DNA of 63,037 nt from Trueperaceae bacterium (GTDB lineage Bacteria > Deinococcota > Deinococci > Deinococcales > Trueperaceae). The DNA is taken from assembly GCA_035703635.1 (NCBI GenBank), contig DASSXV010000034.1, positions 1 through 63,037 of the forward strand, in the 5' to 3' direction. Under the pieces are notes generated by a model. That model ran no database searches, had not been told where the DNA came from, and saw nothing but the letters and a program-made list of their open reading frames with translations. The translations under genes and the position numbers were made by a program. The stretch's first letter is position 1, and each line of letters opens with the position of its first letter. Shown piece after piece: positions 31,435 through 52,161 of the stretch.

Positions 31435-31450
31435 CTGACAGGGCTGGCGC

Positions 31451-32824: not shown

Positions 32825-32865
32825 ACCGAGCCGTATCATTCGGTAGAACCAAGCAAGGAGCCAAC

Positions 32866-34149: not shown

Positions 34150-35504
34150 GCGGCATCAAGCTAGTTACCGAGATACCAGGGCCGAAGAGTCGCGCCATGG
34201 TGGCGCGCCGCGACGCCGTTGGCGCGCGCGGCGCCTCGCGCCTGACCGACCTCGGCGTCACGGGGGCGCACGGTGCGTACGTCGTCGACGTTGACGGCAA
34301 CCGCCTCCTCGACTTCGCGGGCGGCATCGGCGTGCTAGGCGTCGGGCATACGCCGGAGAACGTGGTGCGCGCGCTGCAGGACCAGGCGGAGCGGCTCATC
34401 CACATGTGCGCCATCGTCGGCACTTACGAGCCCTTCGTTGCCGTGCTCGAGGCCCTCTGCGACGCGGCGCCCGGCGACTTCCGCAAGAAGGCCGTGCTCA
34501 TGAACTCGGGCGCGGAGGCGCTCGAGACCGCCGTCAACATCGCGCGCGCCCACACGGGCCGCCAAGCCATCGTCGTGTTCGAAGGCGGGTACCACGGCCG
34601 CACGAACCTCACCCTCGGCATGACAAGCAAGTACGCCCTCTTCAAGAAGGGCTTCGGGCCGTTCGCGCCCGAGATCTATCGGCTGCCGTTCCCCGACGTC
34701 TACCGGCGCCCGGCAGGCATGAGCGAGGACGCGTACCTCGACATGGCCATCGCCGCGCTCGACAAGGCCATGGTGGCGCAAGTCGACCCTGGCGCCATCG
34801 CCGCGTTCGTCATCGAGCCAGTGCAGGGCGAGGCAGGCTTCCTGCCGGTGCCGCCCCGCTTCTTCAGGCGCCTGCGCGAGATCGCCGACGCCAACGGCAT
34901 CGTGCTCGTGGCCGACGAAGTGCAGTCGGGCTTGGGCCGCACGGGCAAGCTCTGGGCAGTCGAGCATTACGGCGTGGTTCCCGACCTCATTACGACCGCC
35001 AAGTCGCTGGCGGCGGGCATGCCGCTCTCCGCCGTCGTTGGGCGCGCCGACATGCTCGACGCCCCTCACCCTGGCGGTCTCGGCGGCACCTACTCAGGCA
35101 ACCCGCTCGCGTGCGCTGCGGCGCTCGAGGCTTTGAGCACCCTGCGCAGCCCCGCCTTCCTCGACCGCGCGACGCGCGTGGGTGAGAGGCTGCGGGCCGG
35201 ACTCGAACGCATCGCAGCCCAGCATGAGCTCGTCGGGGAGGTGCGCGGCCTCGGCCCCATGCTGGCGATGGAGTTCGTGAGGGACCGCGCCACGAAGGCG
35301 CCGTTCCCCGAGGTCGTGCTCGAGGTCACCAAGCAGGCGTTGAAGCGCGGACTCATCGTCATACGCGCGGGTCTCTACTCGAACTGCATCCGCCTACTGC
35401 CGCCCCTCAACCTGAGCGACGCGGAAGTCGACGAAGGCCTGAGCGTGCTCGAAGAGGCGGTGGCTGCGGCCTGCGCCATGCACGCCCCAGCAGCGACCGC
35501 CTGA
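34146..35504 (+). CDS. gabT: 4-aminobutyrate aminotransferase
   Basis: Motifs DFAGGIG, YHGRT, GFGPFAPEIYR, EPVQGEAG, DEVQSG, TAKSLA, GGLGGTYSGNP. Confidence 0.82.
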   Translation: MSGIKLVTEIPGPKSRAMVARRDAVGARGASRLTDLGVTGAHGAYVVDVDGNRLLDFAGGIGVLGVGHTPENVVRALQDQAERLIHMCAIVGTYEPFVAVLEALCDAAPGDFRKKAVLMNSGAEALETAVNIARAHTGRQAIVVFEGGYHGRTNLTLGMTSKYALFKKGFGPFAPEIYRLPFPDVYRRPAGMSEDAYLDMAIAALDKAMVAQVDPGAIAAFVIEPVQGEAGFLPVPPRFFRRLREIADANGIVLVADEVQSGLGRTGKLWAVEHYGVVPDLITTAKSLAAGMPLSAVVGRADMLDAPHPGGLGGTYSGNPLACAAALEALSTLRSPAFLDRATRVGERLRAGLERIAAQHELVGEVRGLGPMLAMEFVRDRATKAPFPEVVLEVTKQALKRGLIVIRAGLYSNCIRLLPPLNLSDAEVDEGLSVLEEAVAAACAMHAPAATA

Positions 35505-35554
35505 GCGCGGCGCCAATGGCGGGTTGCGCCCGCGCGAAGAGGAGTTGAGGAAGC

Positions 35555-37021
35555 GTGGCAGTAACCGAGCCAGACACGAAGTACCCACTCAAGCAACTCA
35601 TCGGGGGCGAGTGGCTAGACGCCGCTGACGGCGGGGTCTGGGACCTGATCGACCCTGGCAGCGAGGACGTCGTCCAGCAGGTCGCGTTCGGCGGGGCAGA
35701 GGACGCCGCCAGCGCCATCGCCGCCGCCGCGGCCGCGTTCCCGGAGTGGGCGGCCAAGACGGCATACGAGCGCGGCAAGGTCCTCGAACGTGCTGCGGCC
35801 TGGATCAAGGCCAACGTCGACGACTTGGCGCGCCTGACCACCGAGGAGTCTGGCAAGCCGCTCGGCGACGCGCGCGGCGAGTGGCTCTCGGCCACGAGTT
35901 ACCTAGCGTGGTTCGCTGGCGAAGGGGTGCGCGTTTACGGGCGCACCGTGCCAGCCCAAGTGCCTGGCAGGCGCATCAGCGTCGTGCCGCAGCCACTTGG
36001 AGTGGTCGCCACCATCACCGCTTGGAACTTCCCCGTCTACAACATCGTGCGCACCTGGGCGGCGGCGCTGGCTGCAGGCAACACCGTCGTTGGGCGCCCT
36101 TCTGAGTTCACGCCGCGCTCGGCGATGCTCCTAGGCCAGGCCCTCGCAGAGGCGGGCGCGCCGGCGGGCGTCATCAACGTCATCAACGGCGACCCTGAGG
36201 CCATGGGCCAGGCGTTCCTCAACGATGCGCGCGTGCGCAAGCTCGCGTTCACCGGCAGCCCGCGCGTCGGGAAGCTCCTCATGGACGGCGCCTCGCGCAC
36301 CCTCACCCGCTTGGCGCTCGAGCTGGGCGGCAACGCCCCCGTCATCGTCTTCCCAGACGCCAAGGACATCGGGCGACTAGTGAAGCTCGCGGCGCGCTTC
36401 AAGGCGCGCAACGCTGGGCAGGTGTGCATCGCGCCGCAGCGCTACTACCTGCATGAGAGCGTGGCAGACGAGTTCACAGCGGGCGTCGTTAGGGCGATGG
36501 CCGAGCTTAAGGTCGGCCACGGGCTAGAGGACGGCGTGCAGGTCGGCCCGCTCATCAACGCCCGCCAACGCGACCGCGTCGAGGAGCTGGTGGCGTCGGC
36601 CGCCGCGTCCGGCGCCACGGTCGCCACCGGCGGCAAGCGCCTAGAGCGCAAGGGCTACTTCTACGAGCCGACGGTCGTGACGGGCGTCGAGCCAGGCACG
36701 CGGCTGTACGAGGAGGAGATCTTCGGGCCGGTGCTGCCCATCACGACCTTCTCCACCGCGGGCGAGGTGCTGGCGCGCGCCAACGCCACTGAGTACGGGC
36801 TGGCCGCCTACGTCTTCACCTCTGACCTCAACACGGCCATCGCCATGTCGGAGAGGCTCGAGTTCGGCATGATCGGGATAAACGACTGGATGCCCGTCAC
36901 GCCAGAAGCGCCGTTCGGCGGCGTGAAGGGGAGCGGCATCGGCCGCGAGACCGGTGCGGAGGGCATCTTGGAGTACCTGGAGCAGAAGGCCGTGTTCATC
37001 GGCGGGGTAGAGCTGCCGTAA
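35555..37021 (+). CDS. gabD: NAD(P)-dependent aldehyde dehydrogenase, succinate-semialdehyde dehydrogenase-like
   Basis: Motifs WNFP, FTGS, LELGGNAP, NAGQVC, EEIFGPV, PFGGVKGSGIGRE; adjacent to gabT. Confidence 0.8.
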   Translation: MAVTEPDTKYPLKQLIGGEWLDAADGGVWDLIDPGSEDVVQQVAFGGAEDAASAIAAAAAAFPEWAAKTAYERGKVLERAAAWIKANVDDLARLTTEESGKPLGDARGEWLSATSYLAWFAGEGVRVYGRTVPAQVPGRRISVVPQPLGVVATITAWNFPVYNIVRTWAAALAAGNTVVGRPSEFTPRSAMLLGQALAEAGAPAGVINVINGDPEAMGQAFLNDARVRKLAFTGSPRVGKLLMDGASRTLTRLALELGGNAPVIVFPDAKDIGRLVKLAARFKARNAGQVCIAPQRYYLHESVADEFTAGVVRAMAELKVGHGLEDGVQVGPLINARQRDRVEELVASAAASGATVATGGKRLERKGYFYEPTVVTGVEPGTRLYEEEIFGPVLPITTFSTAGEVLARANATEYGLAAYVFTSDLNTAIAMSERLEFGMIGINDWMPVTPEAPFGGVKGSGIGRETGAEGILEYLEQKAVFIGGVELP

Positions 37022-37067
37022 GCCCGCAGCGGTGGGGGTGACGGCGGCGTAGACTGGCGGTCGGTAG

Positions 37068-38417
37068 ATGGCCGCTGTGTCCTCTTCACCCCCTTCAACA
37101 CCAGACGCCGCAGAGGTCCTCACCCGCGTGCGCCGCACCATGCGGCTCTCGTTGGTGGAGGGCAGCCTCATGCAGGTGTTCCTCAACTGGACGTCAGGTA
37201 GCGTCCTAGTTGGGTACCTGCTCGCACTGGGCGCGTCGCCGACGCACATCGCGTTGGTCGGCAGCGTGCCGTTCCTCGCCCAGGTCTTCAGCCCGCTTGG
37301 CGCCCTGGCGGCCGAGGTCCTTGGTCATAGGCGGCTGCTCGCCGCGGCGCTTGGCGCCACCGGCCGCGCCAGCTGGGTACTGGCCGCGTTCCTCCCGCAA
37401 CTGAACGTGCCTGACGTGTTGCGCCCGACTTTGCTCGTCGGGCTCGTGTTCTTCGCGAGCGCTTTCCAGGCGACCGTGGCTACCGTGTGGACCGCCTGGA
37501 TGGGCGACGTCGTGCCAGACGAGAGGCGCGGTCGCTACTTCGGCATGCGCGTTGGCGTCCTCGGCGCCGTCGGCACCTTCGCGAACCTCGGTGCCGGCGT
37601 GTTCCTCGACCACGTGGCTGCCCCGCTCTCGTTCCAACTCGTGCTCGGGGTGGCGGTCGCCGCCTCCTTCGCGTCCGTGGTGCTCTACTTCTTCCACTAC
37701 GACCCGCCGACGGAACGCAGGCGCGTGACCCTCGGGCAGATCGTCTCGCACCCGTACGCCTCGCGGAACTTCAGGCGCTTCCTCGTCTTCGCGATCTACT
37801 GGCAGTTCGTGGTCATGCTCGGCGCGCCGTTCGTGGTGCCTTACTTCCTCGAGGAGCTGAAGATGACGTTCGGCCAGGTGTCTTACTGGTCGTCGATCGC
37901 TGCGGTGGTAGCGCTTGGCACCACCATCTTGTGGGGTCGGGCCGCGGACCGTGTTGGCAACAAGCCCATCCTCGCGCTCGGCACGTTCCTCGCCGGGGCG
38001 CTCCTGCCCCTCAACTGGATCCTGGCTGGGTTGACCGGCAACCTCGCGTTCATCTGGGTGTCCGCCGTGTTCGACGCGATCGCGTGGGGGGCCATCACGC
38101 CTGCCGTCTTCAACCTCGCTTTGGGCGCCGCGCCGCGCAGTGGGCGCGTCTCGTTCATCGCCATGTACTCGCTCGTTCAGGGGATCGCTGGCTTCGCTGG
38201 CGGCGCCCTCTCCGGGCCCCTCATCACCTATCTGCACGGCATCACCTACCCGGCGTGGATGGCGGGCTGGACGGGTTACCACACCCTCTTCGCGCTCTCG
38301 GCCGTCGGGCGCATGGCCGCCTGGTTGTGGCTACGCCCGATCGAGGAAGAGCGTTCGTGGCGCACGCGGGACGTCTTGGCGCTGGCGCGCCCATGGCATA
38401 GGCAGACCGGCGCTTAA
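37068..38417 (+). CDS. MFS transporter
   Basis: Multiple hydrophobic segments; motifs VPDERRGRYFG and WGRAADRVGNK. Confidence 0.85.
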   Translation: MAAVSSSPPSTPDAAEVLTRVRRTMRLSLVEGSLMQVFLNWTSGSVLVGYLLALGASPTHIALVGSVPFLAQVFSPLGALAAEVLGHRRLLAAALGATGRASWVLAAFLPQLNVPDVLRPTLLVGLVFFASAFQATVATVWTAWMGDVVPDERRGRYFGMRVGVLGAVGTFANLGAGVFLDHVAAPLSFQLVLGVAVAASFASVVLYFFHYDPPTERRRVTLGQIVSHPYASRNFRRFLVFAIYWQFVVMLGAPFVVPYFLEELKMTFGQVSYWSSIAAVVALGTTILWGRAADRVGNKPILALGTFLAGALLPLNWILAGLTGNLAFIWVSAVFDAIAWGAITPAVFNLALGAAPRSGRVSFIAMYSLVQGIAGFAGGALSGPLITYLHGITYPAWMAGWTGYHTLFALSAVGRMAAWLWLRPIEEERSWRTRDVLALARPWHRQTGA

Positions 38418-38551: not shown

Positions 38552-39676
38552 GTGGACCTCAGAAGCGTGCAGCACGACAACGTACGAGAACATAACCGCC
38601 GGGCGGTGCTGCAAGTGCTGCGCTCGCGCGGGGCTGCGTCTCGTTCCGAACTGTCGCGCGCCACGCTACTCAGCGTTCCGACCGTCACCACCATTGGCCA
38701 AGAGTTCGTGGCCCTCGGCCTGGTAGACGAGGGCGACCTAGCGCCATCCGGCGGCGGGCGCCCGGCACGCCTCCTACGGCTCGTGCCAGAGGCGCGCAAC
38801 GTCCTAGCTGTCGACCTCTCTGGCGCTAACGTGCGCGCAGCACGCATCGACCTAGCCGGCCAACTTCACACCCTAGAGCCGGGACCGCGCCTGGCGCCCG
38901 GCTCCGAAGCCGACCTAACCGCCTGGCTGGCGGCCACGGTCGCCGACGCCGCTGCCGCCAACACGCCGTTCGCATGGCTGGCCGTCGCCATCCCTGGCGT
39001 CATCGATCAGGACGGCTCACACGTGCGCCTCGCCCCAAGCCTCGGTTGGCACCGCGTGAACGTCGCCGAGTTGCTCGAGAAGGCAAGCGGCCTACCCGTA
39101 ATGCTCGAGAACGACGTCAACGCCCTAGCGCTCGGCGAACTGCAGCACGGCGCCGGAGTAGACCACAGCCACGTCGTCTACCTCACCATCGCCGGCGGCA
39201 TCGGCGCCGGGCTCGTGGTTGGCGGCCAGCTCTACCGCGGCGCCCACCGCGCGGCAGGCGAAGTCGGCTACAGCCTCATCCCCGGCGTGCCGGAGGACGG
39301 CCTCGACCTCGGAGCCTCCGGACCGCTCGAACGGCACCTCCTCGGCTTCGCGCAGCGCGTGGTGACGGACGGCGCTCTCGACCTGAGCAGCCCCGAGCGC
39401 AAGGCAGCGTTCGAGAGCCTCGCTGACGGGGTGCGCCTCGTGCTCCATAACCTCGCCTGCGTACTCGACCCTGAAGTCGTCGTCGTCGCCTGGTCAGCGG
39501 ATCAAGAGGGACGCCTGGCGCAAGCCGTAGCCCAGCGCTGGCATATGCCGCTCGCGGTCGGGGTGAGGGCAGGCTCGTTGGGCCCCATCGCCGCCCTGTA
39601 CGGCCTCGGCCACATCGCTCTCGAGAGCCTAACGGCCAGCGTTTGCGGCCTCGAGCAAGTAGGGAGCTCACTATGA
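38552..39676 (+). CDS. ROK-family transcriptional repressor
   Basis: N-terminal HTH (SRSELSRATLLSVPTV, GGRP); motifs ENDVNALALGE, GIGAG, AGEVGY; AAGGA RBS before GTG 38552. Confidence 0.9.
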   Translation: MDLRSVQHDNVREHNRRAVLQVLRSRGAASRSELSRATLLSVPTVTTIGQEFVALGLVDEGDLAPSGGGRPARLLRLVPEARNVLAVDLSGANVRAARIDLAGQLHTLEPGPRLAPGSEADLTAWLAATVADAAAANTPFAWLAVAIPGVIDQDGSHVRLAPSLGWHRVNVAELLEKASGLPVMLENDVNALALGELQHGAGVDHSHVVYLTIAGGIGAGLVVGGQLYRGAHRAAGEVGYSLIPGVPEDGLDLGASGPLERHLLGFAQRVVTDGALDLSSPERKAAFESLADGVRLVLHNLACVLDPEVVVVAWSADQEGRLAQAVAQRWHMPLAVGVRAGSLGPIAALYGLGHIALESLTASVCGLEQVGSSL

Positions 39677-40626
39677 GTTACCGCCACCTGCGTGTCATAG
39701 ACGTGCACACTCACTTCCCGATCCACGACACCATGGGCCTGCCGCCCGTGCCGGAACAACAGCACCCACTGCTCCAGGCGTACGCCAAGGACCGCGGCAA
39801 CCGCATGGCCATGGAGTGGAACACCGAGCCAACCGAGCCGGCAGCCAAGACGGACGCCGAGGTCGACGCCAACCTGGAGCGCTGGGTCGGCGAGGTCGAA
39901 CGTTACGGCCTGCGCAAGGTCGTGTTCGTTAGCGCCAACAACAACGACCGCCTCGCCGGCCTCGTGGCGCGGCACCCCGATAAGTTCGTCGGGTTCGCGC
40001 ACCACGCCCTCGAGCCGGGCGCTGACGTCGAACTCAAGCGCGCCGTCGACGACCTCGGCCTGCGCGGCTATAAACTCCTCGGGCCACGCACGAACTACCC
40101 GTTCGAGGCACCGGAGCTGCGCGGCGTGTGGGAGTTCCTCGCCGAGAGGCGACTACCCGCCCTCATCCACTTCGGCTTCCTCGGCAGGGGCGGCGGCATC
40201 GTTCAGCACCCACGCATGAGCCCCCTCTCGCTCTTCGAGGTCGCGCGCGCCTTCCCCGAGATCCCGTTCCTCATCCCGCACTTCGGCGCCGGTTACTACG
40301 ACGACCTGCTCGCCCTCTGCTGGAGCCTGCCGAACATCTACATCGACACGTCAGGCTCGAACCAGTGGATGCGCTGGATGCCATACCCACTGACCCTCGA
40401 GGACCTCTACCGCAAGGCGCTCGACACCATCGGGCCTGAGCGCATCGTGTTCGGGTCAGACTCGAGCCTCTTCCCGCGCGGCTTCTCCGAGCGCTACCTG
40501 CTCGACCAGTTGCGCGCTTGTTACACGCTCAACGTTGAGGAGGCAGACGTGGCGCTCATCTTCGGCGGCAACGCCGCCCGCCTTCTGCAACTCGCAGACG
40601 AACCCAATGAAGGGAGCGAAGCGTGA
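39673..40626 (+). CDS. Amidohydrolase_2 family metal-dependent hydrolase
   Basis: Motifs DVHTH, LIHFG, IPHFG, YIDTSG, VFGSD; ATGA overlap with the ROK stop. Confidence 0.88.
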   Translation: MSYRHLRVIDVHTHFPIHDTMGLPPVPEQQHPLLQAYAKDRGNRMAMEWNTEPTEPAAKTDAEVDANLERWVGEVERYGLRKVVFVSANNNDRLAGLVARHPDKFVGFAHHALEPGADVELKRAVDDLGLRGYKLLGPRTNYPFEAPELRGVWEFLAERRLPALIHFGFLGRGGGIVQHPRMSPLSLFEVARAFPEIPFLIPHFGAGYYDDLLALCWSLPNIYIDTSGSNQWMRWMPYPLTLEDLYRKALDTIGPERIVFGSDSSLFPRGFSERYLLDQLRACYTLNVEEADVALIFGGNAARLLQLADEPNEGSEA

Positions 40627-42068
40627 GCTGGCACCCCGCCTACCGTAAGCAAGTGCTGGAACCGGACTTCCAGCACGCAGCCACACACCTCTCACACCAC
40701 TTCATCGACGCCATGACGGCGCACCTAGACACCGTCATGCGCCTGCCAGCCTACGCGGGCGAGGCAGACCAGGCAGCAGGCGCCAAGGTGCGCGCCGCGC
40801 TGGTGGCGCTGCACGACGCGCCGCGCCCCGAGCAAGCGGACGACGTGCCCGACTACTACTTCGCGCTGCAGCGCAAGCTCGAGGCAGCCTTGGGCGAGGC
40901 CGTCGGCCTCATCCGCGTCGGCCTGAGCCGCAACGACCTCGACATGACGGTCTACAAGATGCACGGCCGCGCGTCGCTGCTCGACACCGGCGAGCGCCTC
41001 CTCGAGCTCAGGCGCCTGCTCATCGAGAAAGCGAACGCGCACGTTGCCACTGTGCTCATCGCCCAGACTCACCACCAGCCTGGTCAACCGACTACCGTCG
41101 CGCACTATCTCGGCGCCGTCGAGGACCAGCTGTCGCGCGACTCGCAGCGCCTGGAGCAGGCGTACACGCGCATGAACACCTCACCGCTCGGCGCGGCCGC
41201 GCTGGCGGGCAGCAGCCACCCCCTCGACCGCGAGTTCACGGCCGCCAGGCTCGGCTTCGACGCCCCCGTCGGCAACACCTACGACGCGGTAGCCTCGGCT
41301 GACTGGCAGTTCGACATCGTCAGCCTGGCTCAGTCGGTTGCGCTCGGGTTGGGTCGGTTCGTTAACGATCTCTTGTCCTGGGCCGCATCCGGCTGGTACC
41401 GGCTAGAAGATAGTCTGGTCCAAGGGTCATCGATCATGCCGCAGAAACGCAACCCAGTCTCCCTCGAGCATGCCCGCACGCGCTTCTCGCGCGTGCTAGG
41501 CGCGGCAGGCATGGTCAGTTACTCTCACCACAACATCCCCTTCACCGACCTCAACGACTTCGGCCCAGACATCCAGGGCGCCCTCGGCCTGCAGCACAGG
41601 CAGTTGGTCGGCGCCCTCACGCTGCTAGACGCCTGCCTCCAGCACGGCGACTTCGACGAGCGCAAGCTTGCCGAGGCAGCAGCGCGCACCGACACGACGG
41701 CAACCGAACTCGCCGACGTGCTCGCGCGCGATCACGGACTAGCTTTTCCTCACGCTCACCACGTGGTCGCCACGTTGGTGCAGCGTTTCAACTCGGAGGG
41801 GCGGCTACTGACCTCGGCAGCCCCCGCCGACGTGGAGGCCGCGGGCGGACCGCTGCTCTCCCCGGAGGCGCTCACCGCCGCGCTCGACCCAAGCGGGTTC
41901 GTGCGGCGCAGGAACGGCCTTGGCATGCCAGCGCCGGAGGTCATGACTATCAGGCTCGCTCGGGCCACGGAGCGGCTAGCAGCCGACCGTCAGGCCCTGC
42001 GGGATCGGTCCGAGGCGCTCGCCCGCGCCACAGCAGGGTTGCGCGGAACCGGAAAGGAGCAAGTCTAA
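40623..42068 (+). CDS. Argininosuccinate-lyase-like C-N lyase (fumarase/aspartase superfamily), probably not the biosynthetic ArgH
   Basis: Signature GSSIMPQKRNP, plus SRND, THHQPGQP and SPLGAAALAG. Confidence 0.85.
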   Translation: MSWHPAYRKQVLEPDFQHAATHLSHHFIDAMTAHLDTVMRLPAYAGEADQAAGAKVRAALVALHDAPRPEQADDVPDYYFALQRKLEAALGEAVGLIRVGLSRNDLDMTVYKMHGRASLLDTGERLLELRRLLIEKANAHVATVLIAQTHHQPGQPTTVAHYLGAVEDQLSRDSQRLEQAYTRMNTSPLGAAALAGSSHPLDREFTAARLGFDAPVGNTYDAVASADWQFDIVSLAQSVALGLGRFVNDLLSWAASGWYRLEDSLVQGSSIMPQKRNPVSLEHARTRFSRVLGAAGMVSYSHHNIPFTDLNDFGPDIQGALGLQHRQLVGALTLLDACLQHGDFDERKLAEAAARTDTTATELADVLARDHGLAFPHAHHVVATLVQRFNSEGRLLTSAAPADVEAAGGPLLSPEALTAALDPSGFVRRRNGLGMPAPEVMTIRLARATERLAADRQALRDRSEALARATAGLRGTGKEQV

Positions 42069-42070
42069 GT

Positions 42071-43315
42071 ATGAAGCGTGTTCTTCTTCTCTTGGCCGTG
42101 ATGTTGGGGGTCGGCATCGGCGCCGCCCAGACCACCATCACCTACTGGCAGTACGACTACGCCACCCGCGTCGACGCGATGAACCAGCTCATCGCCCAGT
42201 TCGAGGCCGCCAACCCGGACATCAAGGTTGTCCAGGAAACCTTCCCGTACGACGGCTACCAGCAGCAGGTTGCCGCCTCCATGCCCGCCGGCCAAGGCGC
42301 GGACGTCGCTCAGCTCTTCTACGGCTGGCTCCCCACCTGGCAACGCGCCGGTTACGTCGTTCCGCTCCCTGAGCAGTTCTTCGACGCCGCCGAGCTCGAC
42401 GCCAACTTCGCCCCGCTCGCCCAGGCCGCCAAGGTAGACGGCACCTGGTACGGCCTCCCGACCGCCGTACGTAGCTTGGCGCTCTTCTACAACGCCGACA
42501 TGCTGGCTTCCGCCGGCTACGACGCTCCGCCCGCCACTTGGGACGAGTTCGTTGAGATCGCCGAGGCCCTCACCGTCAAGCAGGGCGCTCGCTTCACCCA
42601 GGTTGGCTACGGCTTCGCGCCGACCGGCCAGGACCACCACCTCGTGCGTGAAGTCCTCATCCGTCAGTTCGGCGGCGCGCCGTACTCCGACGACTACAGC
42701 ACCGTCACGTACGACAGCGAAGCTGGCGTCGAAGCCCTGACCTTCTACACCGACTGGGTCACGAAGTACGGCTTCGCCGTGCCTGAGTTCGTCCCGGGCA
42801 ACAACGGTTACCGCGACGGCTTCCGTCAGCTCGAGAACATCGCCATGATCGTCGACGGCTCGTTCGCCATCGGCGACGTCAAGAAGGTCTCCTTCAACTG
42901 GGGCGTCACCGAGCTGCCCGTCTTCGACAACGGCATCAAGTCGAACTTCGGCTCGTTCTTCATGAACGCCATCACCCCGAACGCCACCAAGGACCCGGCC
43001 AAGCTCGAAGCCGCCGCCAAGTTCCTCAAGTTCGTCACGAGCGACGACGCCATGAAGCTGTGGCTCGACGTCGTGGGTGAACTGCCGGCTAGCCGCAGCC
43101 TCATCGCCGACCCGACCCTCGCCGCGGACCCCGTCTACGGTCCGTTCGTCCGCGCCCTCGACTACGCGCACGCCACCGTTTTCGTCGACGAGACCGGTCA
43201 GCGCGACGTGATGGTCGACGCCATCAACGAAGTCGTCCTCCAGGGCACCAGCCCCGCCGTTGCCATCAAGGAAGCGGCCGCAACCGAGCAGCTCCTGCTG
43301 GACGCTAACCGCTGA
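42071..43315 (+). CDS. Carbohydrate ABC transporter substrate-binding protein (CUT1)
   Basis: Signal peptide; motifs FEAANPDIKV, ALFYNADM, PATWDEF; strongly C-ending codon usage. Confidence 0.9.
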   Translation: MKRVLLLLAVMLGVGIGAAQTTITYWQYDYATRVDAMNQLIAQFEAANPDIKVVQETFPYDGYQQQVAASMPAGQGADVAQLFYGWLPTWQRAGYVVPLPEQFFDAAELDANFAPLAQAAKVDGTWYGLPTAVRSLALFYNADMLASAGYDAPPATWDEFVEIAEALTVKQGARFTQVGYGFAPTGQDHHLVREVLIRQFGGAPYSDDYSTVTYDSEAGVEALTFYTDWVTKYGFAVPEFVPGNNGYRDGFRQLENIAMIVDGSFAIGDVKKVSFNWGVTELPVFDNGIKSNFGSFFMNAITPNATKDPAKLEAAAKFLKFVTSDDAMKLWLDVVGELPASRSLIADPTLAADPVYGPFVRALDYAHATVFVDETGQRDVMVDAINEVVLQGTSPAVAIKEAAATEQLLLDANR

Positions 43316-43378
43316 GGTCACGGGCGGCAGCAGCCGCCTAGCGGCGTGCGAGCGCCGACCAGCACCGCTTTAATCACC

Positions 43379-43403
43379 GTGGGGGCGAGTATCTCGCCCC
43401 CAC
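43379..43403 (+). terminator. Stem-loop after the binding-protein gene
   Basis: GTGGGGGCGAG-TAT-CTCGCCCCCAC perfect 11-bp stem; no U-tract. Confidence 0.55.
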
Positions 43404-43469
43404 CAGACTCAAGACTTATCTGCTTCCTCGCCGCGCCACTTGGCGCGGGGCAACGGCCCGGGAGGTGCC

Positions 43470-44438
43470 ATGAGGAGTTCGCAAGGCGCACCGCGCCGTC
43501 GAGGACTATCGCTGAGCTCGCGCGAGGCCCTATGGGCGTACGCGTTCATGCTCATTCCGCTCGGCTTCTTCCTGTTCTTCAGGTTGTGGCCAGCGATCCA
43601 GTCTTTGAAACTGTCTCTATTCACTTGGCACGTCGACCCTGAGCAGCGCGTCTTCATCGGGCTGCAGTACTACCGCGAGATGTACGCCAATATCGCCGCC
43701 AAGGGCGATCTCTACAAGGCGCTGCGGAACATGCTCTATTACTTCCTCATCGTCGTCTTCGGTCAAGTCTCCCTCGGCATGATCAGCGCCATCCTCCTCA
43801 ACTCGATCACGCGCCTCAAGGGTCTCTTCCGCGCCATCTATTTCGCCCCCTACGTCACGCCGGCAGCGGCCGTCGCGTGGGTGTGGGGCTGGATGTACTC
43901 GGTCAACTTCGGTATCTTCAACAAGTTCTTAGGCGACTGGAGCGAGTTCGTCACCGGCATCGGCCTACCGTGGCTGGCCATCGACCCGCAACCGTTCCTC
44001 ACCAGCCCGAAGCAGGCGCTGATCGCGGTGGCCGCAGTGGTCGTGTGGCAACAGCTCGGCTTCCAGGTAGTCATCTTCCTTGCTGGACTGCAGGGCATCC
44101 CGCGCCCCATGCTCGAGGCGGCCGACATCGACGGCGCCAACGGGTGGCAGCGCTTCTGGGGGGTGACGTTCCCCCTACTCAACCCCGTGATCGTGTTCTC
44201 GCTCATCATCTCGACCATCTCGACGCTGCAGATGTTCGACCAAGTGCAGAACATCAACTTCACGGACCAGGGCGGGCCGCTAGGTAGCACCCTCACCATC
44301 GCCCTGTACATGTACCAGCAGGCGTTCCAGAAGTTCCGCATCGGCTACGCCGCCGCCGTCACCGTGCTGCTCTTCGCCATCATCCTCGTCATCACGCTCA
44401 TCCAACTCAAGGTCACGCAAAGGAAGGTCGAGTACTGA
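43470..44438 (+). CDS. Carbohydrate ABC transporter permease
   Basis: EAA loop LEAADIDGANGWQRF; GGAGG RBS. Confidence 0.9.
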   Translation: MRSSQGAPRRRGLSLSSREALWAYAFMLIPLGFFLFFRLWPAIQSLKLSLFTWHVDPEQRVFIGLQYYREMYANIAAKGDLYKALRNMLYYFLIVVFGQVSLGMISAILLNSITRLKGLFRAIYFAPYVTPAAAVAWVWGWMYSVNFGIFNKFLGDWSEFVTGIGLPWLAIDPQPFLTSPKQALIAVAAVVVWQQLGFQVVIFLAGLQGIPRPMLEAADIDGANGWQRFWGVTFPLLNPVIVFSLIISTISTLQMFDQVQNINFTDQGGPLGSTLTIALYMYQQAFQKFRIGYAAAVTVLLFAIILVITLIQLKVTQRKVEY

Positions 44439-45292
44439 TGGCCGCACAGCTCCAGTACGCCCCGCGCCGCCGTCGCCCGCGCTTCGCGCCCGGTCGCTTC
44501 GTCGCCTACGTGCTGCTGGCGATCGGCAGCGTCGTCATGGCGTTCCCGTTCGTGTGGATGATCCTATCGGCCTTCAAGCCGCTCAAAGAGATCTTCCGCT
44601 TCGGTTTCTGGCCGCAAGTCTGGACCCTTGCCAACTTCCAGGAAGTCATCCTTCACACGCAGTTCCCACGCTGGTTCCTCAACAGCCTCATCGTGGCCGG
44701 CATCTCGACGGTTTCGGTGTTGTTCTTCGCGTCGCTGGTGGGTTACACCCTCACGCGCCTGCGCTTTCCCGGCCGCAACTTCATCTTCTTGCTCATCCTC
44801 AGCACCCTCATGATCCCCACGGAGATGCTCGTCATCCCGTGGTACGTCATGTCGACCGAGTACGGCTGGGTCAACACCTTCTGGGGCATCGCCTTCCCTG
44901 GCCTCATCCCCGCGTTCGGGGTCTTCCTCATGCGGCAGTTCTTCGAGACCCTGCCGCGTGACTTGTTCGACGCCGGGCGAGTCGACGGCGTGAGCGAGTT
45001 CGGCTTGTTCTGGCGGGTCGGCCTGCCACTCGTCGGCCCCGGCCTCGCCGCCCTCGGCATCTTCAACTTCGTAGGGAACTGGAACGCTTACCTGTGGCCG
45101 CTCATCGTGGCCAAGTCGCCGAGCATGCGCACCATCCCCGTTGGGGTGGCGTTCTTCTCGGGTGAGGCCGGCACCGAGTGGAACCTCATCATGGCGGCAG
45201 CTGCGCTCGCCGTCATCCCCGTGCTGCTCGTGTTCTTCATCTTCCAGCGCCAGATCATCGAGGGCGTCGTGCTTACCGGGGTGAAAGGATGA
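44438..45292 (+). CDS. Carbohydrate ABC transporter permease
   Basis: Motifs FLMRQFFETLP, DAGRVDG, WNAYLWP. Confidence 0.9.
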   Translation: MAAQLQYAPRRRRPRFAPGRFVAYVLLAIGSVVMAFPFVWMILSAFKPLKEIFRFGFWPQVWTLANFQEVILHTQFPRWFLNSLIVAGISTVSVLFFASLVGYTLTRLRFPGRNFIFLLILSTLMIPTEMLVIPWYVMSTEYGWVNTFWGIAFPGLIPAFGVFLMRQFFETLPRDLFDAGRVDGVSEFGLFWRVGLPLVGPGLAALGIFNFVGNWNAYLWPLIVAKSPSMRTIPVGVAFFSGEAGTEWNLIMAAAALAVIPVLLVFFIFQRQIIEGVVLTGVKG

Positions 45293-46281
45293 GCATTGCC
45301 TGGGGGGACGGGCGGGAGCCCGAGTCCCCACGGATCTTGGTAGTCGGCAACGCCAACGTGGACGTGCTCATGGGAGACGTCGCGCCGTGGCCCCTGCCGG
45401 GTAGCGAGGTCATCATCGACCGCTACGAGTGGCGAGTGGGCGGCGCGGCAGGCAACACTGGCTTAGCGCTCGCAGCCCTTGGAGTCCGCGATGGTGAGGA
45501 CTCGGACGTCATCGCCGACGTTGGTAGCGACTTCCTCGGCGCCTGGCTGGAGGAAGCCATGGCAGGCGCGGCGCGCTTGACGCGCGTGCCGCACTCCACC
45601 GCCCTCACGGTCGGCCTCACTCACCCTGATGGCCAACGCACGTTCGTATCGTACTTAGGGCACCTCGTGACGCTGCCGCTCGAACGCATCGAGAGGGCCA
45701 TCGACGCCGCCCGCCCTGGCGACCTGCTGCTGCTGTGCGGTTACTTCCTGCTGCCAGAGCTACGCGCCAAGGCGCCCGCCATCTTGCGGCGCGCTAGGGA
45801 ACGCGGAGTCATCACTACGATCGATACCGGTTGGCCGGACGGCGGCTGGACGCCGGAGGTGCGCGCCGAAGTGGCTGCGCTGCTGCCGCTACTCAGCGCC
45901 TTCCTCCCCAACAGGGAAGAAGCCCTCGGCCTCACGGGCGCACCGCAAGACGGCGACGTCAACGCCGCCGTGACACAACTCTGCGACGTCGGCGCCGAGC
46001 GCATCGTGGTGAAGCTCGGCGCGGAGGGCGGCCTGCTGGTGGCGCCAGACGAGCACGCGCTGGTGCCATCGCCGAAAGTCGTGGTGCAGGACACCGTCGG
46101 CGCCGGCGACACCTTCAACGCTGGCCTGCTGGCTGGCTTGGCGCGCGGCATGAGCTGGGCAGAGGCGCTAGTGCCAGCAGTGAACGCCGCCGCCCTCGCC
46201 ATAGCAAGCCAGCCAAGGCATTACCCAAGCTGGGACGAGACCCTGAGCGCTTCGCGCCAACCCGTCTCGGTTACTAGGTAG
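45289..46281 (+). CDS. PfkB-family carbohydrate kinase
   Basis: Motifs GGAAGN, PNREEA, VKLGAEG, DTVGAGDTFNAG; ATGA overlap. Confidence 0.9.
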   Translation: MSIAWGDGREPESPRILVVGNANVDVLMGDVAPWPLPGSEVIIDRYEWRVGGAAGNTGLALAALGVRDGEDSDVIADVGSDFLGAWLEEAMAGAARLTRVPHSTALTVGLTHPDGQRTFVSYLGHLVTLPLERIERAIDAARPGDLLLLCGYFLLPELRAKAPAILRRARERGVITTIDTGWPDGGWTPEVRAEVAALLPLLSAFLPNREEALGLTGAPQDGDVNAAVTQLCDVGAERIVVKLGAEGGLLVAPDEHALVPSPKVVVQDTVGAGDTFNAGLLAGLARGMSWAEALVPAVNAAALAIASQPRHYPSWDETLSASRQPVSVTR

Positions 46282-46826
46282 TTCATTCGCGCATCGTGCG
46301 GGCCGTGAGGCAGGTCGGGCAAGACGAGAGCGTCGAGCGTCACCCCAACCACCACGGCCCCCGCGCGCGCCCTGGGCAGCAGCCGATCGTAATAACCGAG
46401 TCCGTAACCGAGCCGCACGCCCGTGATGTCGAACGCCAAGCCTGGCACTAGGAACAGGTCAACGGCGTCCGGCTCTACAGTGGCGGCGGCCTGAGTCGGC
46501 TCCAAGAAACCATAAGCGTGACGAGACAAGGCAGACTCGTCGGTCAGCTGGGCAGCCGTCACATGGTGCAGCGTTAGGTGCGGCTCCGGGCGCCGGTGCG
46601 TGCGCGGAAGCACTAAACGCTTCTCGTCGGCTACCAGCAGTTCGCCGAGGTCGACCTCATCGCCGAACGCTAGGTAGGCCGCCACCGTGTCCGCGCGTTG
46701 GTAGGCCGTGCATGCCCGCAGCGCCGCAACGATGGTTGCGTTGAGCTCCGGACCGCGGCGCTGCATCTCCTGGGCGCGCACCTCGCGCGCCCAGTCGCGC
46801 ACTGCCCGCTTCGCGGCAACCGTCAT
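46221..46826 (-). CDS. ygfA: 5-formyltetrahydrofolate cyclo-ligase
   Basis: VPGLAFD...RLGYGLGYYDRLL motif; TAGACT 8 nt before the ATG. Confidence 0.9.
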   Translation of the reverse strand: MTVAAKRAVRDWAREVRAQEMQRRGPELNATIVAALRACTAYQRADTVAAYLAFGDEVDLGELLVADEKRLVLPRTHRRPEPHLTLHHVTAAQLTDESALSRHAYGFLEPTQAAATVEPDAVDLFLVPGLAFDITGVRLGYGLGYYDRLLPRARAGAVVVGVTLDALVLPDLPHGPHDARMNYLVTETGWREALRVSSQLG

Positions 46827-46916
46827 GGCTGATGAGTCTACGCTGCTGGTCTGGGCATTGCACAGGCCGCGTGTGCCGGACCGCACCGCATTGGCTTCGC
46901 TCAGACATACTGGTGC

Positions 46917-47342
46917 ATGCCAAGACATCTCACCACTACCGTCCACCACCTAGTAGGTCTACGTTTCGTTGCCGAGACGCCGGAAGGTCAGCGCGTGATG
47001 ATCGACAACGAGAAGCACGCACGCACGGGTCCAAGCCCGATGCAGCTCCTGCTAGGCGCGACGGCCGCCTGCGCCGCCATGGACATCGTCAACATGCTAG
47101 GTAAGCGCAAGCTGACCATCAACAGTTACCGGATTGAGATGACCGGCGAGCGCCCGGACGCCACCCCCGCCCCGTTCGAGCACATCGTCGCGCGGCACGT
47201 GTTCGACGTGCCTGGCCTCGACGAGGCCACCGCCCAGCGCTTCGTTCAACTAGCTACTGAGAAGTACTGCTCGGTCGGCTTCAGCCTCAAAGCGAGCATC
47301 GAGTACCAGGTGGAGCTGGAAGCGGCGCAGCCGCCTGCTTGA
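46917..47342 (+). CDS. OsmC/YhfA-like protein
   Basis: Motifs GPSPMQLLL..ACAAMD and EKYCSV. Confidence 0.88.
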   Translation: MPRHLTTTVHHLVGLRFVAETPEGQRVMIDNEKHARTGPSPMQLLLGATAACAAMDIVNMLGKRKLTINSYRIEMTGERPDATPAPFEHIVARHVFDVPGLDEATAQRFVQLATEKYCSVGFSLKASIEYQVELEAAQPPA

Positions 47343-48123: not shown

Positions 48124-49740
48124 ATGGAAGTCGCGATAGTAGTGGCCGCAGCCTTAGGGACCTTGGCCATCGTCAGCACCCGCTTGAGCCAACGGTTCGG
48201 CGTTCCGGCGCTCGTGCTGTTCGTTGGCGTCGGCATGCTGGCCGGCTCAAGTGGGCCGCTCGGGATCGTGTTCGACGACTTCACCCTCAGCTACAACATC
48301 GGGGTGGTGGCACTTGCCATCATCCTGTACTCGGGTGGGCTCGACACGCGCATGCGGCTCTTCCGCGTCTCCGTCGTGCCTGCCTCGGCGTTAGCCACGT
48401 TCGGGACGCTGCTCACCATGATCTTCATCGGGCTGGCGGCCTACTACCTCACCGACCTCGACTTCCCGACGAGCATGCTGCTCGGGGCGGTCATCTCGAG
48501 CACCGACGCTGCCGCCGTGTTCAGCTCCCTCAAGGGCCGCGGACTACCGAAGCGACTGCGCGGCACCCTCGAGACGGAGTCAGGCACGAACGACCCGATG
48601 GCGGTGCTACTCACCCTAGCGCTCGCGCAGGCCATCACGCAGAACCAAGGCATCAACTACTTGGCGATCGCGGGAAACATCGTCCTCGAGCTAGCGATCG
48701 GCGCCGTTCTCGGCCTCGCGTTCGGCTGGCTGCTGCAGCTCCTAGTCAACAAGGTCGCGCTAGACAACGTAGGCCTCTACCCGATGCTGGCGCTATCCGG
48801 CGGCCTACTCGCCTTCGGCCTAACCGCGTTGGCGCACGGCAACGGCTACCTGGCCATCTATCTCGTCGGGTTGGTGCTCGGCAACAACCATCTGGCGCAG
48901 CGCCTCGCCATCGTCAACTTCATGGACGGTGCCGCCTGGGGCGCTCAGCTCGTGATGTTCATGGTCATGGGCTTGCTCGTCTTCCCCGAGCAGTTGGGGC
49001 CGATCCTCGGCGTGGCCTTACTGATAACGGGTGCCACCATGTTCATCGCCAGGCCGCTGGCCGTGACCATCACGCTTGGCGTCCTGCGCTGGCTCTCGCG
49101 TGGGCGCTTCAGCTTCAGCCCCAAGGAGCAGGTCCTGCTCACCTGGGCGGGGCTGAAGGGCGCCGTGCCGATCGTCTTGGCGATGGTGCCGCTCATGCAC
49201 AGGGTGCCTGGGGCCGACGTCATCTTCAACATCGTGTTCGTCGTCGTGATCGTCGGAACGTTGTTGCAGGGGTTCACGCTGTCACCGCTGGCGCACTGGT
49301 TGGGGCTCGCCGTGAGCGAGCCTCCACGGGCTAAGTTGCGGCTCGAGCTCGGGGGTGAGGCGCCGGACGGCGCCGCCGTCCTCGACGTGTTCCTCAGGCC
49401 GGACAACCGCGCCGTCGGGAAGCGCATCGCTGAGCTTGCCTTGCCGCCCGAGGTCGTGATCGCCGCGGTGCTGAGGCGCGGGCAGCTCGTTACGCCCCGC
49501 GGGAGCACCGTGTTCGAGGCAGGCGACCACGTCTACCTGATCGGGGCGCACATGCACGAGGACCACGTGCCGTTAGCGTTCGGCCGTAACAAGAGGACCG
49601 TCCCGCGCGGCAAGCGCCAAGCGAACGAAGCCGTGGCGCCAACGGTCGAGCCCGGCCCTGAGGTCACGGAAACGCCACTCACGGCTCCCAAGCCTGCACC
49701 AGTGGCGACCGCCGCCGATGGGTCCGCCAGCGACAGCTGA
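48124..49740 (+). CDS. cvrA: K+/H+ antiporter (CPA1, NhaP2/CvrA type) with TrkA-C domain
   Basis: Motifs SSTDAAAVFS, ESGTNDPMA, GNGYLAIY, WAGLKGAVPI, PRGSTVFEAGD. Confidence 0.87.
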   Translation: MEVAIVVAAALGTLAIVSTRLSQRFGVPALVLFVGVGMLAGSSGPLGIVFDDFTLSYNIGVVALAIILYSGGLDTRMRLFRVSVVPASALATFGTLLTMIFIGLAAYYLTDLDFPTSMLLGAVISSTDAAAVFSSLKGRGLPKRLRGTLETESGTNDPMAVLLTLALAQAITQNQGINYLAIAGNIVLELAIGAVLGLAFGWLLQLLVNKVALDNVGLYPMLALSGGLLAFGLTALAHGNGYLAIYLVGLVLGNNHLAQRLAIVNFMDGAAWGAQLVMFMVMGLLVFPEQLGPILGVALLITGATMFIARPLAVTITLGVLRWLSRGRFSFSPKEQVLLTWAGLKGAVPIVLAMVPLMHRVPGADVIFNIVFVVVIVGTLLQGFTLSPLAHWLGLAVSEPPRAKLRLELGGEAPDGAAVLDVFLRPDNRAVGKRIAELALPPEVVIAAVLRRGQLVTPRGSTVFEAGDHVYLIGAHMHEDHVPLAFGRNKRTVPRGKRQANEAVAPTVEPGPEVTETPLTAPKPAPVATAADGSASDS

Positions 49741-49754
49741 AGCGCGCCGCGGTG

Positions 49755-51350
49755 CTAGGGGCGAGGCGTCGAGTGCTCGCTCGGCACTACGAAGCTAACG
49801 CGGGTTCCGGGTTGAGCTTGCGCTAGGGCCGCCAGGTCGCCGCGCTCTACGACGCCAACGACGGGGTAACCGCCGGTGCGCCCACGGTCGGCGAGCAGCA
49901 CTAGGGGGCGGCCGTCCGGCGGTAACTGCACTGCCCCGAGCGGCATGCCCGTCGAGGAGATGGCGGGGACCGCGCAAGAGACTTGCATGTCAGCGCGCGC
50001 GAACTCGAGGCGCACGCCCATGCGGCTCCGTTCGCTCACGACGAAACCTTGCGTTTGCAGCATGGCGAAGGCCGCCACCTCGTGGTGCGGTCCGGGGTGC
50101 AGGCGCAGGGCCAACTCACGGGAGTAGTGGCCGAGGGCCGCGCCCTGCGCTGGCGGGCCGGACGGTTGGGTGGCCTGGGCCAGCACGTCGCCTGGCCGCA
50201 ACCAGCGTCCGAAGCCGCCAACGCGTCCGCGCACGTCTGTCGAGCCGCCGCTAGCGAGGCGCGGGTGGCCTACTGCGCCGCCTAGCGGCACCAACCCCCC
50301 GGCCACAGCGAGTAGGGGTACGCCCGCGAGTTGCCGCGGCCCAGAGGCCGGGGGCGTCAGTTCGAGGATCGCTCCCGCCCGCCAAGTGAAGACCGCGCCA
50401 GGCTCGAGCTCGCGGCCAGCGAGGCGCGCCGCCGCCGCCCCGCCGAACACGGCGAGCGTGGTGCGTTCGGCTCGCAGGCGGGCGTGTGGCACGGTGAACT
50501 CAAGACTGGCATGCGTCAGGGGTGCGCCGACCACGTAGCTGAGGGCGAGGAGCAGCCGTTGATCGAGCGCGCCCGCGTCCGCCAGGCCGTAGCGGCCGAC
50601 CCCTGGCCGCGGTCGCCCCTGAAGTGAAGCAGATGTCGGCCAGACGTCTAGGACGCTTAGGAGCGCTTCGCGCTGCAGCGGGTCGGTTAGGTGCTGGCGT
50701 GGCGGCGCCGTCGGGTTGCTGGGCGGCAGGAGCTTGGCTGGCACGAAACGTAACTCATCACCGGCGCTCAGGGTCGTCGGCTCGGAGCGGTTAGGGTCGA
50801 ACAACCTGAACGCCGTCCTGCCGAGCACCCACCAACCGCCAGGGCCGGCGCTGGGGTACACGCCGGCCTGGCCGCCAGCGATGGCGACGGCGCCGGCAGG
50901 CACGTCGAGCCGTGGGCGCTCGCGGCGCGGTGTGGCAAGGCGCGGGTCGAGGCCGTGCAGGTAAGGGAAACCCGGTGTGAAGCCAAGGTACGCAACGGAG
51001 TAGCTGGGGGCGCGATGCAGCGCCACGATCTCTGGCCATGCGAGGCCAAGGCGCTCGGTCAGCGCGTCAGCGTCCGCCTGAGCGCCGTAGACGACCGGTA
51101 CCTCGAACTGCTTTGGCGTCGGCTCGGAGCCCGCGGCGCCGGCGGCGGCGGCAAGGAGTTGCGCTTCTGCGTTCGCTAGGCGACCCTCGACCAGGATGTC
51201 GGTATGGCCCGGTACGACGTCGCAGCCCTTGTCAGGCAGCGCCGCCCTGATCGCGGCGGCCGCGGCCGTTAGCCGCCGCGAGAGCTGCGGGGTCGGGGTC
51301 TCGTCGAACGCTAGGTAGCGCGCGTTAGGACCCGCCCGCACGATGCGCAT
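49755..51350 (-). CDS. 5-oxoprolinase subunit B/C fusion (PxpB-PxpC)
   Basis: PxpB motifs GFTPGFPYL, VPAGAVAIAG, PGGW; PxpC motifs SRMGVRL, GAVQLPPDG, TGGYP. Confidence 0.85.
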   Translation of the reverse strand: MRIVRAGPNARYLAFDETPTPQLSRRLTAAAAAIRAALPDKGCDVVPGHTDILVEGRLANAEAQLLAAAAGAAGSEPTPKQFEVPVVYGAQADADALTERLGLAWPEIVALHRAPSYSVAYLGFTPGFPYLHGLDPRLATPRRERPRLDVPAGAVAIAGGQAGVYPSAGPGGWWVLGRTAFRLFDPNRSEPTTLSAGDELRFVPAKLLPPSNPTAPPRQHLTDPLQREALLSVLDVWPTSASLQGRPRPGVGRYGLADAGALDQRLLLALSYVVGAPLTHASLEFTVPHARLRAERTTLAVFGGAAAARLAGRELEPGAVFTWRAGAILELTPPASGPRQLAGVPLLAVAGGLVPLGGAVGHPRLASGGSTDVRGRVGGFGRWLRPGDVLAQATQPSGPPAQGAALGHYSRELALRLHPGPHHEVAAFAMLQTQGFVVSERSRMGVRLEFARADMQVSCAVPAISSTGMPLGAVQLPPDGRPLVLLADRGRTGGYPVVGVVERGDLAALAQAQPGTRVSFVVPSEHSTPRP

Positions 51351-51352
51351 GC

Positions 51353-52120: not shown

Positions 52121-52161
52121 GCTACCGCCCTGCGCCGCCGCGGCCGCTGCCGGGCCGGCGC

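Follow-up and report, generated by a model that had tools for sequence, protein, structure and literature searches.

An argininosuccinate-lyase-like family carried in sugar-import operons of Deinococcota and other phyla, with a proposed role in the breakdown of a sugar conjugate

What does an argininosuccinate lyase (ASL)-like enzyme do in an operon for sugar import? This question is raised by positions 38552..46281 of a 63,037-nucleotide stretch of DNA, referred to here as the window (contig DASSXV010000034.1 of the Trueperaceae assembly GCA_035703635.1, positions 1 to 63,037, forward strand). The contig has 67% G+C, and the nearest relatives of the window's proteins come from Trueperaceae and other Deinococcota assemblies. 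Seven plus-strand genes occupy the locus and encode a ROK-family regulator, an Amidohydro_2 hydrolase, the ASL-like lyase (40623..42068), a CUT1-type solute-binding protein, two ATP-binding cassette (ABC) permeases and a PfkB-family kinase. The original prediction for this locus described a tightly coupled operon without arg genes and proposed that it serves a new route for fructose-asparagine or fructose-aspartate. We found that the lyase belongs to a distinct, motif-defined group that is embedded in operons for sugar import across at least four phyla. Judging from the genes that accompany it, there is about an even chance that the operon serves the uptake and breakdown of a sugar conjugate, of which an amino sugar bearing a 2-substituted succinate (O-malyl or N-aspartyl) is the most probable form.

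The lyase gene starts with GTG at 40623, and its product carries the Lyase_1 and ASL_C2 domains of the fumarase/aspartase superfamily (PF00206, 126.6 bits; PF14698, 44.3 bits). On the argH model TIGR00838 the lyase scored 244.2 bits, under the curated cut-off of 279.5. A separate true argH, scoring 629.8 bits on the same model, was found on contig C53 of this genome (C53:67015-68373) with argG immediately upstream (C53:65288-66460), and there are no arg genes near the operon. The lyase and this ArgH are 32% identical over 352 residues. We then placed the lyase in a FastTree phylogeny of 139 rows, made up of the query, the genome's own ArgH, ten homologues from plasmids and 127 of 150 listed representatives at 50% identity (those 440-530 residues long); this is a fast method, and the tree has a midpoint root and weak deeper branches. 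The lyase fell in a 17-row clade (support 100) with Deinococcus plasmid proteins, and the own ArgH lay deep in another part of the tree. The sub-cut-off score, the 32% identity to the argG-adjacent copy and the separate clade indicate that the lyase is, by sequence, a diverged paralogue and not ArgH. The original prediction was thus borne out on its central point; its phylogenetic check holds for the separation from ArgH, and EDDS lyase, one of the other enzymes named there, was compared through PDB alignments only and is not in the tree. Relatives of the lyase are often auto-annotated as argH or argininosuccinate lyase, and a Protein Atlas look-up returned only 'argininosuccinate lyase' clusters. 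Labelling 50 representatives with NCBIfam models was set aside; it did not separate the groups, and the argH cut-off also lets in non-ArgH proteins of about 500 residues.

Alignment with the genome's own ArgH showed the departures from typical ArgH that the original prediction had quoted, together with the retained SSxMPxKxN. The Ser loop of the lyase, GSSIMPQKRN (residues 268-277), satisfies the superfamily signature GSSxMPxKxN. The lyase motifs are GLSRNDL, QTHHQPGQP, SSIMPQKRN and HNIPFTDLND, and the own ArgH has ARSRNDQ, YTHLQVAQP and AYNKD at the equivalent places. Thus the query reads LSRNDL and ArgH RSRNDQ around the conserved S-R-N-D, THHQ against THLQ at the T-H dyad, HNIPFTDLND against AYNKD in the substrate loop, and NPV..EH against NPD..EL after the Ser loop; the own ArgH and two of its relatives read RSRNDQ, THLQ and AYNKD or AYQKD. 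In a 12-sequence alignment of the clade, S-R-N-D, T-H and GSSIMPQKRN with the following Glu were invariant. A family loop, HNxP[FY]xDx[NV]D, stands where ArgH has AYNKD. Of the 139 tree rows, 41 contained the pattern HN.P[FYWL].D, and all of these lacked SRND[QH].

From the delta-crystallin and ASL literature, we take the kept motifs to be the fumarate side of ArgH, and the replaced RSRNDQ, THLQ and YNKD to be its arginine side. Because the fumarate-side catalytic apparatus is kept, the lyase would be expected to release fumarate by beta-elimination from a 2-substituted succinate. It also matched the NCBIfam model of the ASL-like protein XcbC with 191.8 bits, far under the cut-off of 575; XcbC is a phosphate-eliminating enzyme that acts on phosphosulfolactate. 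Since the superfamily includes this model, and since a class I lyase cleaving the C-S bond of N-acetyl-S-(2-succino)cysteine is described in PMC9706529, the leaving group of the lyase need not be nitrogen.

We assessed whether the neighbourhood of the lyase is conserved, a check that the original prediction had proposed. In a first scan of 24 Trueperaceae loci, four of them too short to judge, binding-protein and permease genes followed the lyase on the same strand in 14, and a more distant opposite-strand ABC system followed it in 4. A genome survey, to whose tallies alone the unpublished genome G251 contributes, revealed a lyase match at E <= 1e-90 in 128 of 301 Deinococcota genomes: 73/102 in the window's own family, 54/112 in a second family, taken to be Deinococcaceae, and 0/86 in three further families. 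From the 128 we chose 40 loci on long contigs, spread over genera and therefore non-random, and placed reference proteins on each; some of these probably duplicate plasmid records already counted. The lyase adjoined a sugar ABC importer gene in 37 of the 40, and a binding-protein gene lay beside it in 19/20 loci of the window's family and 18/20 of the second. The other partners were more variable. In the same order of families, Amidohydro_2 lay directly upstream of the lyase in 13/20 and 0/20, ROK beside it (upstream) in 6/20 and 10/20, a kinase in 5/20 and 9/20, a small PIG-L deacetylase in 0/20 and 9/20, and a large PIG-L protein in 3/20 and 9/20. Kinase-free minimal clusters of lyase and ABC genes made up 14/20 and 8/20, and all five Deinococcus plasmid loci that we opened had the binding-protein gene after the lyase. 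The invariant core is the lyase with the ABC importer, and the regulator, the kinase and a hydrolase come and go together. In a complete genome of the same genus (locus L131), the lyase gene comes right after ROK and the intervening Amidohydro_2 gene is missing; Amidohydro_2 is therefore accessory. As a separate observation, four related genomes (G125:C2, G269:C84, G171:C2 and G172:C10) have one in-frame stop within the lyase match, TAG in one and TGA in three; the genes may be pseudogenes, or the assemblies may be in error.

The same arrangement was found outside Deinococcota. The lyase lay inside a sugar ABC operon in all five alphaproteobacterial plasmid loci opened. In Aminobacter, Qingshengfaniella, Thalassospira and Roseinatronobacter, one arm encodes a DMT transporter, a large PIG-L protein (about 780-800 residues) and ROK, and the divergent arm encodes the binding protein, two permeases, the lyase, UgpC and a PfkB or sugar kinase; the fifth locus, in Terrarubrum, has a metallo-beta-lactamase (MBL)-fold lactonase-like gene and no ROK, PIG-L or kinase. 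Bacillus sp. F19 carries a variant in which ROK, an iron/polyamine-type binding protein, an ATPase, a fused permease, a creatininase-family hydrolase and the lyase are followed by a BadF-type kinase, a second ROK gene and an 837-residue PIG-L/NEW3 protein. In the window, the binding protein shares 51.8% identity with that of the D. wulumuqiensis operon and 45.7% with that of Aminobacter, and no other protein of this genome matches either of them better; the window's PfkB shares 42% identity with the kinase of the D. wulumuqiensis operon. Lyases from Alphaproteobacteria and Bacillus have in common with the query VLxPxF/Y, SRND[LIM], NPV..EH and HN[IT]P[FY]xDx[NV]D. We take the three groups of lyases as one functional family with one ligand class, an assignment drawn from their sequences and surroundings.

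A metagenome scan with the clade alignment and generic patterns gave 80 loci, of which four (L040-L043) were family-like (36-85% identity; the rest at most 37%), and L041-L043 were inspected. One contig of 74% G+C encodes ROK, Amidohydro_2 and a lyase 50% identical to the query. Another, of 55% G+C, encodes a binding protein, two permeases, a lyase (36% identical) and an MBL-fold gene, with Amidohydro_2 on the opposite strand. A further homologue on an ENA contig, P0291 (855 residues), has an N-terminal ASL-like lyase, 40% identical to the query, fused to a C-terminal BcrAD_BadFG kinase-like domain. Directly upstream of ROK, Amidohydro_2 and the lyase, the 74% G+C relative also carries a metallo-beta-lactamase/rhodanese fusion and a SulP sulfate permease (L042:3315-6713); a rhodanese gene likewise neighbours the unrelated Haladaptatus homologue, and this coincidence may be due to chance. 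The Haladaptatus and Geminicoccaceae homologues lie in unrelated gene contexts. Sinorhizobium plasmid hits were taken as ordinary argH (about 70% query cover and 33% identity, like argH-annotated hits in unrelated genera).

Within the window, all seven genes lie on the plus strand and are tightly coupled, as had been claimed. The ROK gene (38552..39676; PF00480, 92.8 bits) starts with GTG at 38552, preceded by GGAAAGGA; its top NCBIfam alignments are Mlc and NagC, beginning at residue 47, and the protein is presumed to be the repressor of the operon. The Amidohydro_2 metal-dependent hydrolase (39673..40626; PF04909, 121.5 bits against a Pfam cut-off of 26.4) starts with ATG at 39673, and its metal ligands are conserved (HxH, H166, H203 and D263). 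Two bases after the lyase gene comes the gene for the binding protein (42071..43315, ATG at 42071), which has SBP_bac_8 and SBP_bac_1 domains and an N-terminal signal peptide. Permease 1 (about 43470..44438, ATG read from the translation) is UgpA/MalF-like and permease 2 (44438..45292, ATG at 44438) UgpE/MalG-like, each with a BPD_transp_1 domain and with UgpA and UgpE as the respective top NCBIfam matches. The PfkB-family sugar kinase (45289..46281, ATG at 45289; PF00294, 136.4 bits) completes the set. Start and stop codons overlap as ATGA or GTGA at the ROK/hydrolase, hydrolase/lyase and permease 2/kinase junctions, the last as ATGA, and the stop codon of permease 1 shares one base with the start codon of permease 2. 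The sole long spacer (43316 to about 43469) follows the binding-protein gene and contains a perfect hairpin with a 9-bp stem and a 3-nt loop (43381..43401), a putative transcript stabiliser or attenuator. A scan for consensus promoters and terminators gave no signal above shuffled expectation. The operon thus supplies the binding protein and both MalF/MalG-type permeases of a CUT1 importer; an ABC ATPase gene is not among its genes, and a candidate, UgpC/MsiK-like and 51% identical to the UgpC of the Aminobacter cassette, lies on contig C18. Convergent with the operon is a 5-formyltetrahydrofolate cyclo-ligase open reading frame (46221-46949, minus strand, longest start), which overlaps the 3' end of PfkB by about 60 bases; in most Trueperaceae relatives, this gene is where the locus ends on its downstream side.

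The partner enzymes were then considered as clues to the substrate. Across lineages the hydrolase slot is filled by Amidohydro_2, PIG-L deacetylase, MBL-fold or creatininase-like proteins, and the kinase slot by PfkB or NagK-like enzymes; for the BadF-type kinase of Bacillus sp. F19, the only NCBIfam match is N-acetylglucosamine (GlcNAc) kinase (114 bits), and the kinase domain fused to the lyase in P0291 is of this NagK-like kind too. For the small cytoplasmic PIG-L of Deinococcus operons, MshB is the best model (145-147 bits, cut-off 224), followed by Mca and BshB; for the large PIG-L proteins it is Mca or BshB1, and all scores are under the equivalog cut-offs. To our knowledge, all characterised PIG-L enzymes deacylate the 2-amino position of a glucosamine (GlcN) glycoside. 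Some of these partners are secreted and carry carbohydrate-binding domains. This genome encodes two large PIG-L proteins, both with signal peptides and both orthologues of proteins within lyase cassettes of other phyla: an 873-residue PIG-L/NEW3 protein (C46:3530-7583, L129), behind a second ROK gene and a MoxR/VWA/DUF58 set, and a 748-residue PIG-L/NEW3/CBM9 protein (C69:707-4792, L130), 49.7% identical to the in-operon one of D. wulumuqiensis. A gamma-glutamyltranspeptidase gene divergent from the latter was considered as support and rejected, as this adjacency occurs in no other locus compared. Two Trueperaceae loci, L144 (G237) and L148 (G059), have a creatininase-family gene beside the cassette, 36% and 28% identical to the one in Bacillus sp. 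F19; it represents a fourth hydrolase type in the variable slot within this one family.

Taken together, a deacylase of the GlcNAc/GlcN type, a kinase that is either NagK-like or PfkB, a ROK protein resembling NagC and Mlc, and a sugar importer suggest that the imported conjugate is an amino sugar bearing a succinate. The presence of nagA and nagB elsewhere in this genome agrees with an amino sugar. From the gene content, we infer the following steps. The CUT1 binding protein and the two permeases, with an ATPase encoded elsewhere, would import the compound. The lyase would take the C3 proton of the succinyl moiety and expel the sugar-borne leaving group, giving fumarate and a free sugar or amino sugar. 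Amidohydro_2 may provide accessory hydrolysis of an acylated or cyclised substrate, a part that PIG-L, MBL-fold or creatininase-like proteins would play in other loci. The released sugar would be phosphorylated by the PfkB kinase, and ROK would keep the operon repressed as long as substrate and product are both absent.

As the most specific candidate for the substrate we put forward, tentatively and with more doubt than belief, GlcNAc- or GlcN-alpha-1,2-L-malate, the bacillithiol core, scavenged from the environment. It is the only natural compound known to us that fits all the partners, and the (S)-malyl ether of GlcN(Ac)-malate has the stereochemistry handled by the fumarase/ASL superfamily. 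If so, the family would be a C-O lyase that converts glucosaminyl-L-malate to glucosamine and fumarate and, with secreted and cytoplasmic Mca/BshB-like amidases, the importer and the amino-sugar kinase, would form a widespread pathway by which non-producers scavenge bacillithiol or GlcNAc-malate for carbon, nitrogen and sulfur; this extension is likewise speculative, and we regard it as possible rather than probable.

Several observations weigh against the amino sugar-succinate interpretation or its bacillithiol form. The NEW3 and CBM9 domains of the large PIG-L proteins are better suited to a polymer than to a small thiol. Genes nagA and nagB lie in none of the clusters examined. No BshA above the cut-off was detected in this genome (best 123.5 bits against 273.7), and the bacillithiol idea therefore needs an external source. 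The nearest solved relatives of the window's Amidohydro_2 are weak (E about 5e-9 to 2e-8) and comprise the 4-oxalomesaconate hydratase LigJ, the uncharacterised amidohydrolase 3nur and LigW decarboxylases; since the characterised ones are a hydratase and decarboxylases, a deacylase role for Amidohydro_2 is a guess. The alphaproteobacterial and Bacillus lyases fall in another FastTree clade than the query, and the assignment of one function across the clades draws on shared motifs, shared context and an orthologous binding protein. ABC genes are absent beside the lyase in 2 of the 24 loci of the first scan (L021 and L025) and in 1 of the 20 surveyed loci of the window's family. Finally, in Trueperaceae the lyase always follows an aminotransferase/aldehyde dehydrogenase/MFS block, which is considered below.

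The route in the original prediction begins with import of fructose-asparagine or fructose-aspartate; the amidohydrolase would deamidate it, PfkB would phosphorylate C6, and the lyase would release fumarate and an amino-sugar phosphate, taking the place of the SIS-domain deglycase of the fra and frl pathways. The kept fumarate-side motifs are compatible with this route. Known systems for Amadori compounds employ CUT1 importers and PfkB kinases (B. subtilis frlONMD, E. coli FrlD and Salmonella FraD), and among PDB sequences the binding protein is matched best by 5ci5 (102 bits), a ketohexose-bound protein. Many relatives also come from assemblies with dung or soil in their isolate names, settings in which Maillard products are plausible. 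However, the route gives no role to the PIG-L proteins (MshB/Mca/BshB-like), NagK-like kinases and secreted carbohydrate-binding enzymes that fill the partner slots elsewhere, and the cluster offers no evident enzyme to process its product, 1-amino-1-deoxyfructose. The PfkB kinase reached only 40.9 bits on the fructoselysine 6-kinase (FrlD) model NF007321 (cut-off 247), over residues 257-342 only, and no equivalog model reached its cut-off for this protein. Deamidation by the amidohydrolase likewise lost ground, as the gene is dispensable in the same-genus genome and the solved structures nearest to its product are not those of amidases. A search for a SIS domain, confined to the seven products of the operon, found none. 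We consider the fructose-asparagine/-aspartate route, as written, unlikely.

Alternatively, the lyase may eliminate a group other than in the fumarate route, for example phosphate from the kinase product in the manner of XcbC, or may act on a sugar acid. Its match to the XcbC model would agree with this, as would the kinase in the full operons and the lyase-kinase fusion in P0291. However, that score is far under its cut-off, kinase-free clusters of lyase and ABC genes are common in both families, and the residues that bind the two carboxylates of the succinyl group in ArgH are all kept. Such an elimination is distinctly unlikely.

The lyase might also belong with the block upstream of the operon, cleaving an N-substituted aspartate of a polyamine-like compound, with its proximity to the ABC genes being secondary. 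This block (window 30706-38417, plus strand) encodes a GNAT acetyltransferase, a flavin amine oxidase, two class-III aminotransferases (one GABA (gamma-aminobutyric acid)-transaminase-like), a succinate-semialdehyde-dehydrogenase-like aldehyde dehydrogenase and an MFS transporter, and looks like polyamine or GABA-type amine catabolism. Wherever a Trueperaceae locus extends far enough upstream, the block is found in synteny with the lyase; all the genes are on one strand with short gaps, and in L021, L025 and L132 the lyase comes after the MFS gene and has no ABC genes beside it. Nevertheless, this synteny is limited to one family of related genomes, and the lyase-ABC link is kept without the block in the Deinococcus, alphaproteobacterial and Bacillus loci, which makes a primary role in amine catabolism very unlikely. 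That the lyase is a redundant or specialised argininosuccinate lyase is hardly credible: the automatic argH names of many relatives and its best solved match, T. thermophilus ArgH (198 bits), stand against a score below the argH cut-off, the replacement of RSRNDQ, THLQ and YNKD, its separate clade and the true argH beside argG.

Other genes of the window were recorded at a greater distance. Upstream of the amine block, a 750-residue open reading frame (28180-30432, minus strand) has coding-like codon bias and a single marginal match, to a Chlamydia PMP repeat. Downstream of the operon, a KefC-type K+/H+ antiporter lies at 48124-49740, and a fused pxpB-pxpC-like carboxyltransferase with a LamB/YcsF (pxpA-like) gene at 49755-52219 (minus strand) is likely a 5-oxoprolinase set.

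The original prediction knew of no described pathway with this gene set, and in agreement with it we found no paper on the gene set or on a GlcN(Ac)-malate lyase in open-access papers and preprints. Identification of the substrate would add fumarate release from a sugar conjugate to the reactions of the fumarase/ASL superfamily and would correct the common 'argH' mis-annotation. It would also reveal a new catabolic or scavenging route, possibly for low-molecular-weight thiols or Maillard-type compounds. The candidate substrates are few and synthetically accessible, so the question is directly testable.

Compared with known systems, the lyase is closest to ArgH (TIGR00838), its best solved match, with which it shares the Lyase_1 and ASL_C2 fold, SSxMPxKxN, T-H and S-R-N-D. 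It differs from ArgH in having HNIPFTDLND for YNKD, L for Q after SRND and NPV..EH for NPD..EL, and in lying in a sugar-import operon instead of beside argG. The second-best solved match (162-164 bits, below the ArgH score) is a 508-residue chain deposited as 'argininosuccinate lyase' (PDB 6g3d/6rx8), which we take to be the EDDS lyase of Chelativorans sp. BNC1, cleaving N-substituted aspartates to fumarate. Compared through PDB alignments only, this chain has T-Q where the lyase family has T-H and lacks the HNxPFxDxND loop, and we know of no sugar context for the enzyme.

The fra system of Salmonella and the frl system of E. coli and B. subtilis follow a similar logic, with an importer, an amide hydrolase, a PfkB kinase, a C-N cleaving enzyme and a dedicated repressor. 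In these systems a SIS-domain deglycase yields glucose-6-phosphate and an amino acid, whereas this operon has no SIS gene and its kinase is not an FrlD orthologue. N-acetylmuramic acid recycling (the kinase MurK or AmgK with the etherase MurQ) resembles the proposed pathway in coupling beta-elimination of a carboxyalkyl group from an amino sugar to a sugar kinase, BadF-type or other. MurQ, however, is a SIS enzyme that abstracts the sugar C2 proton and yields lactate, whereas the enzyme proposed here, from the fumarase superfamily, would abstract the C3 proton of the acid and yield fumarate. BshB/Bca and MshB/Mca (PIG-L/LmbE) provide the best models for the PIG-L proteins that accompany the lyase in Deinococcus, Alphaproteobacteria and Bacillus, but the scores of these partners are below the cut-offs (for example, 145 against 224), and the window has Amidohydro_2 instead, with the PIG-L genes on other contigs. 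Finally, the S-(2-succino) lyase 2SL (PMC9706529) resembles the activity proposed for our lyase: it is a class I lyase whose 2-substituted succinate substrate, N-acetyl-S-(2-succino)cysteine, loses a leaving group other than nitrogen as fumarate is formed. 2SL works beside N-acetylation and deacetylation steps; the likeness to our lyase is one of description, and the discussion of that paper counts adenylosuccinate lyase and argininosuccinate lyase among the other enzymes of 2SL's lyase family.

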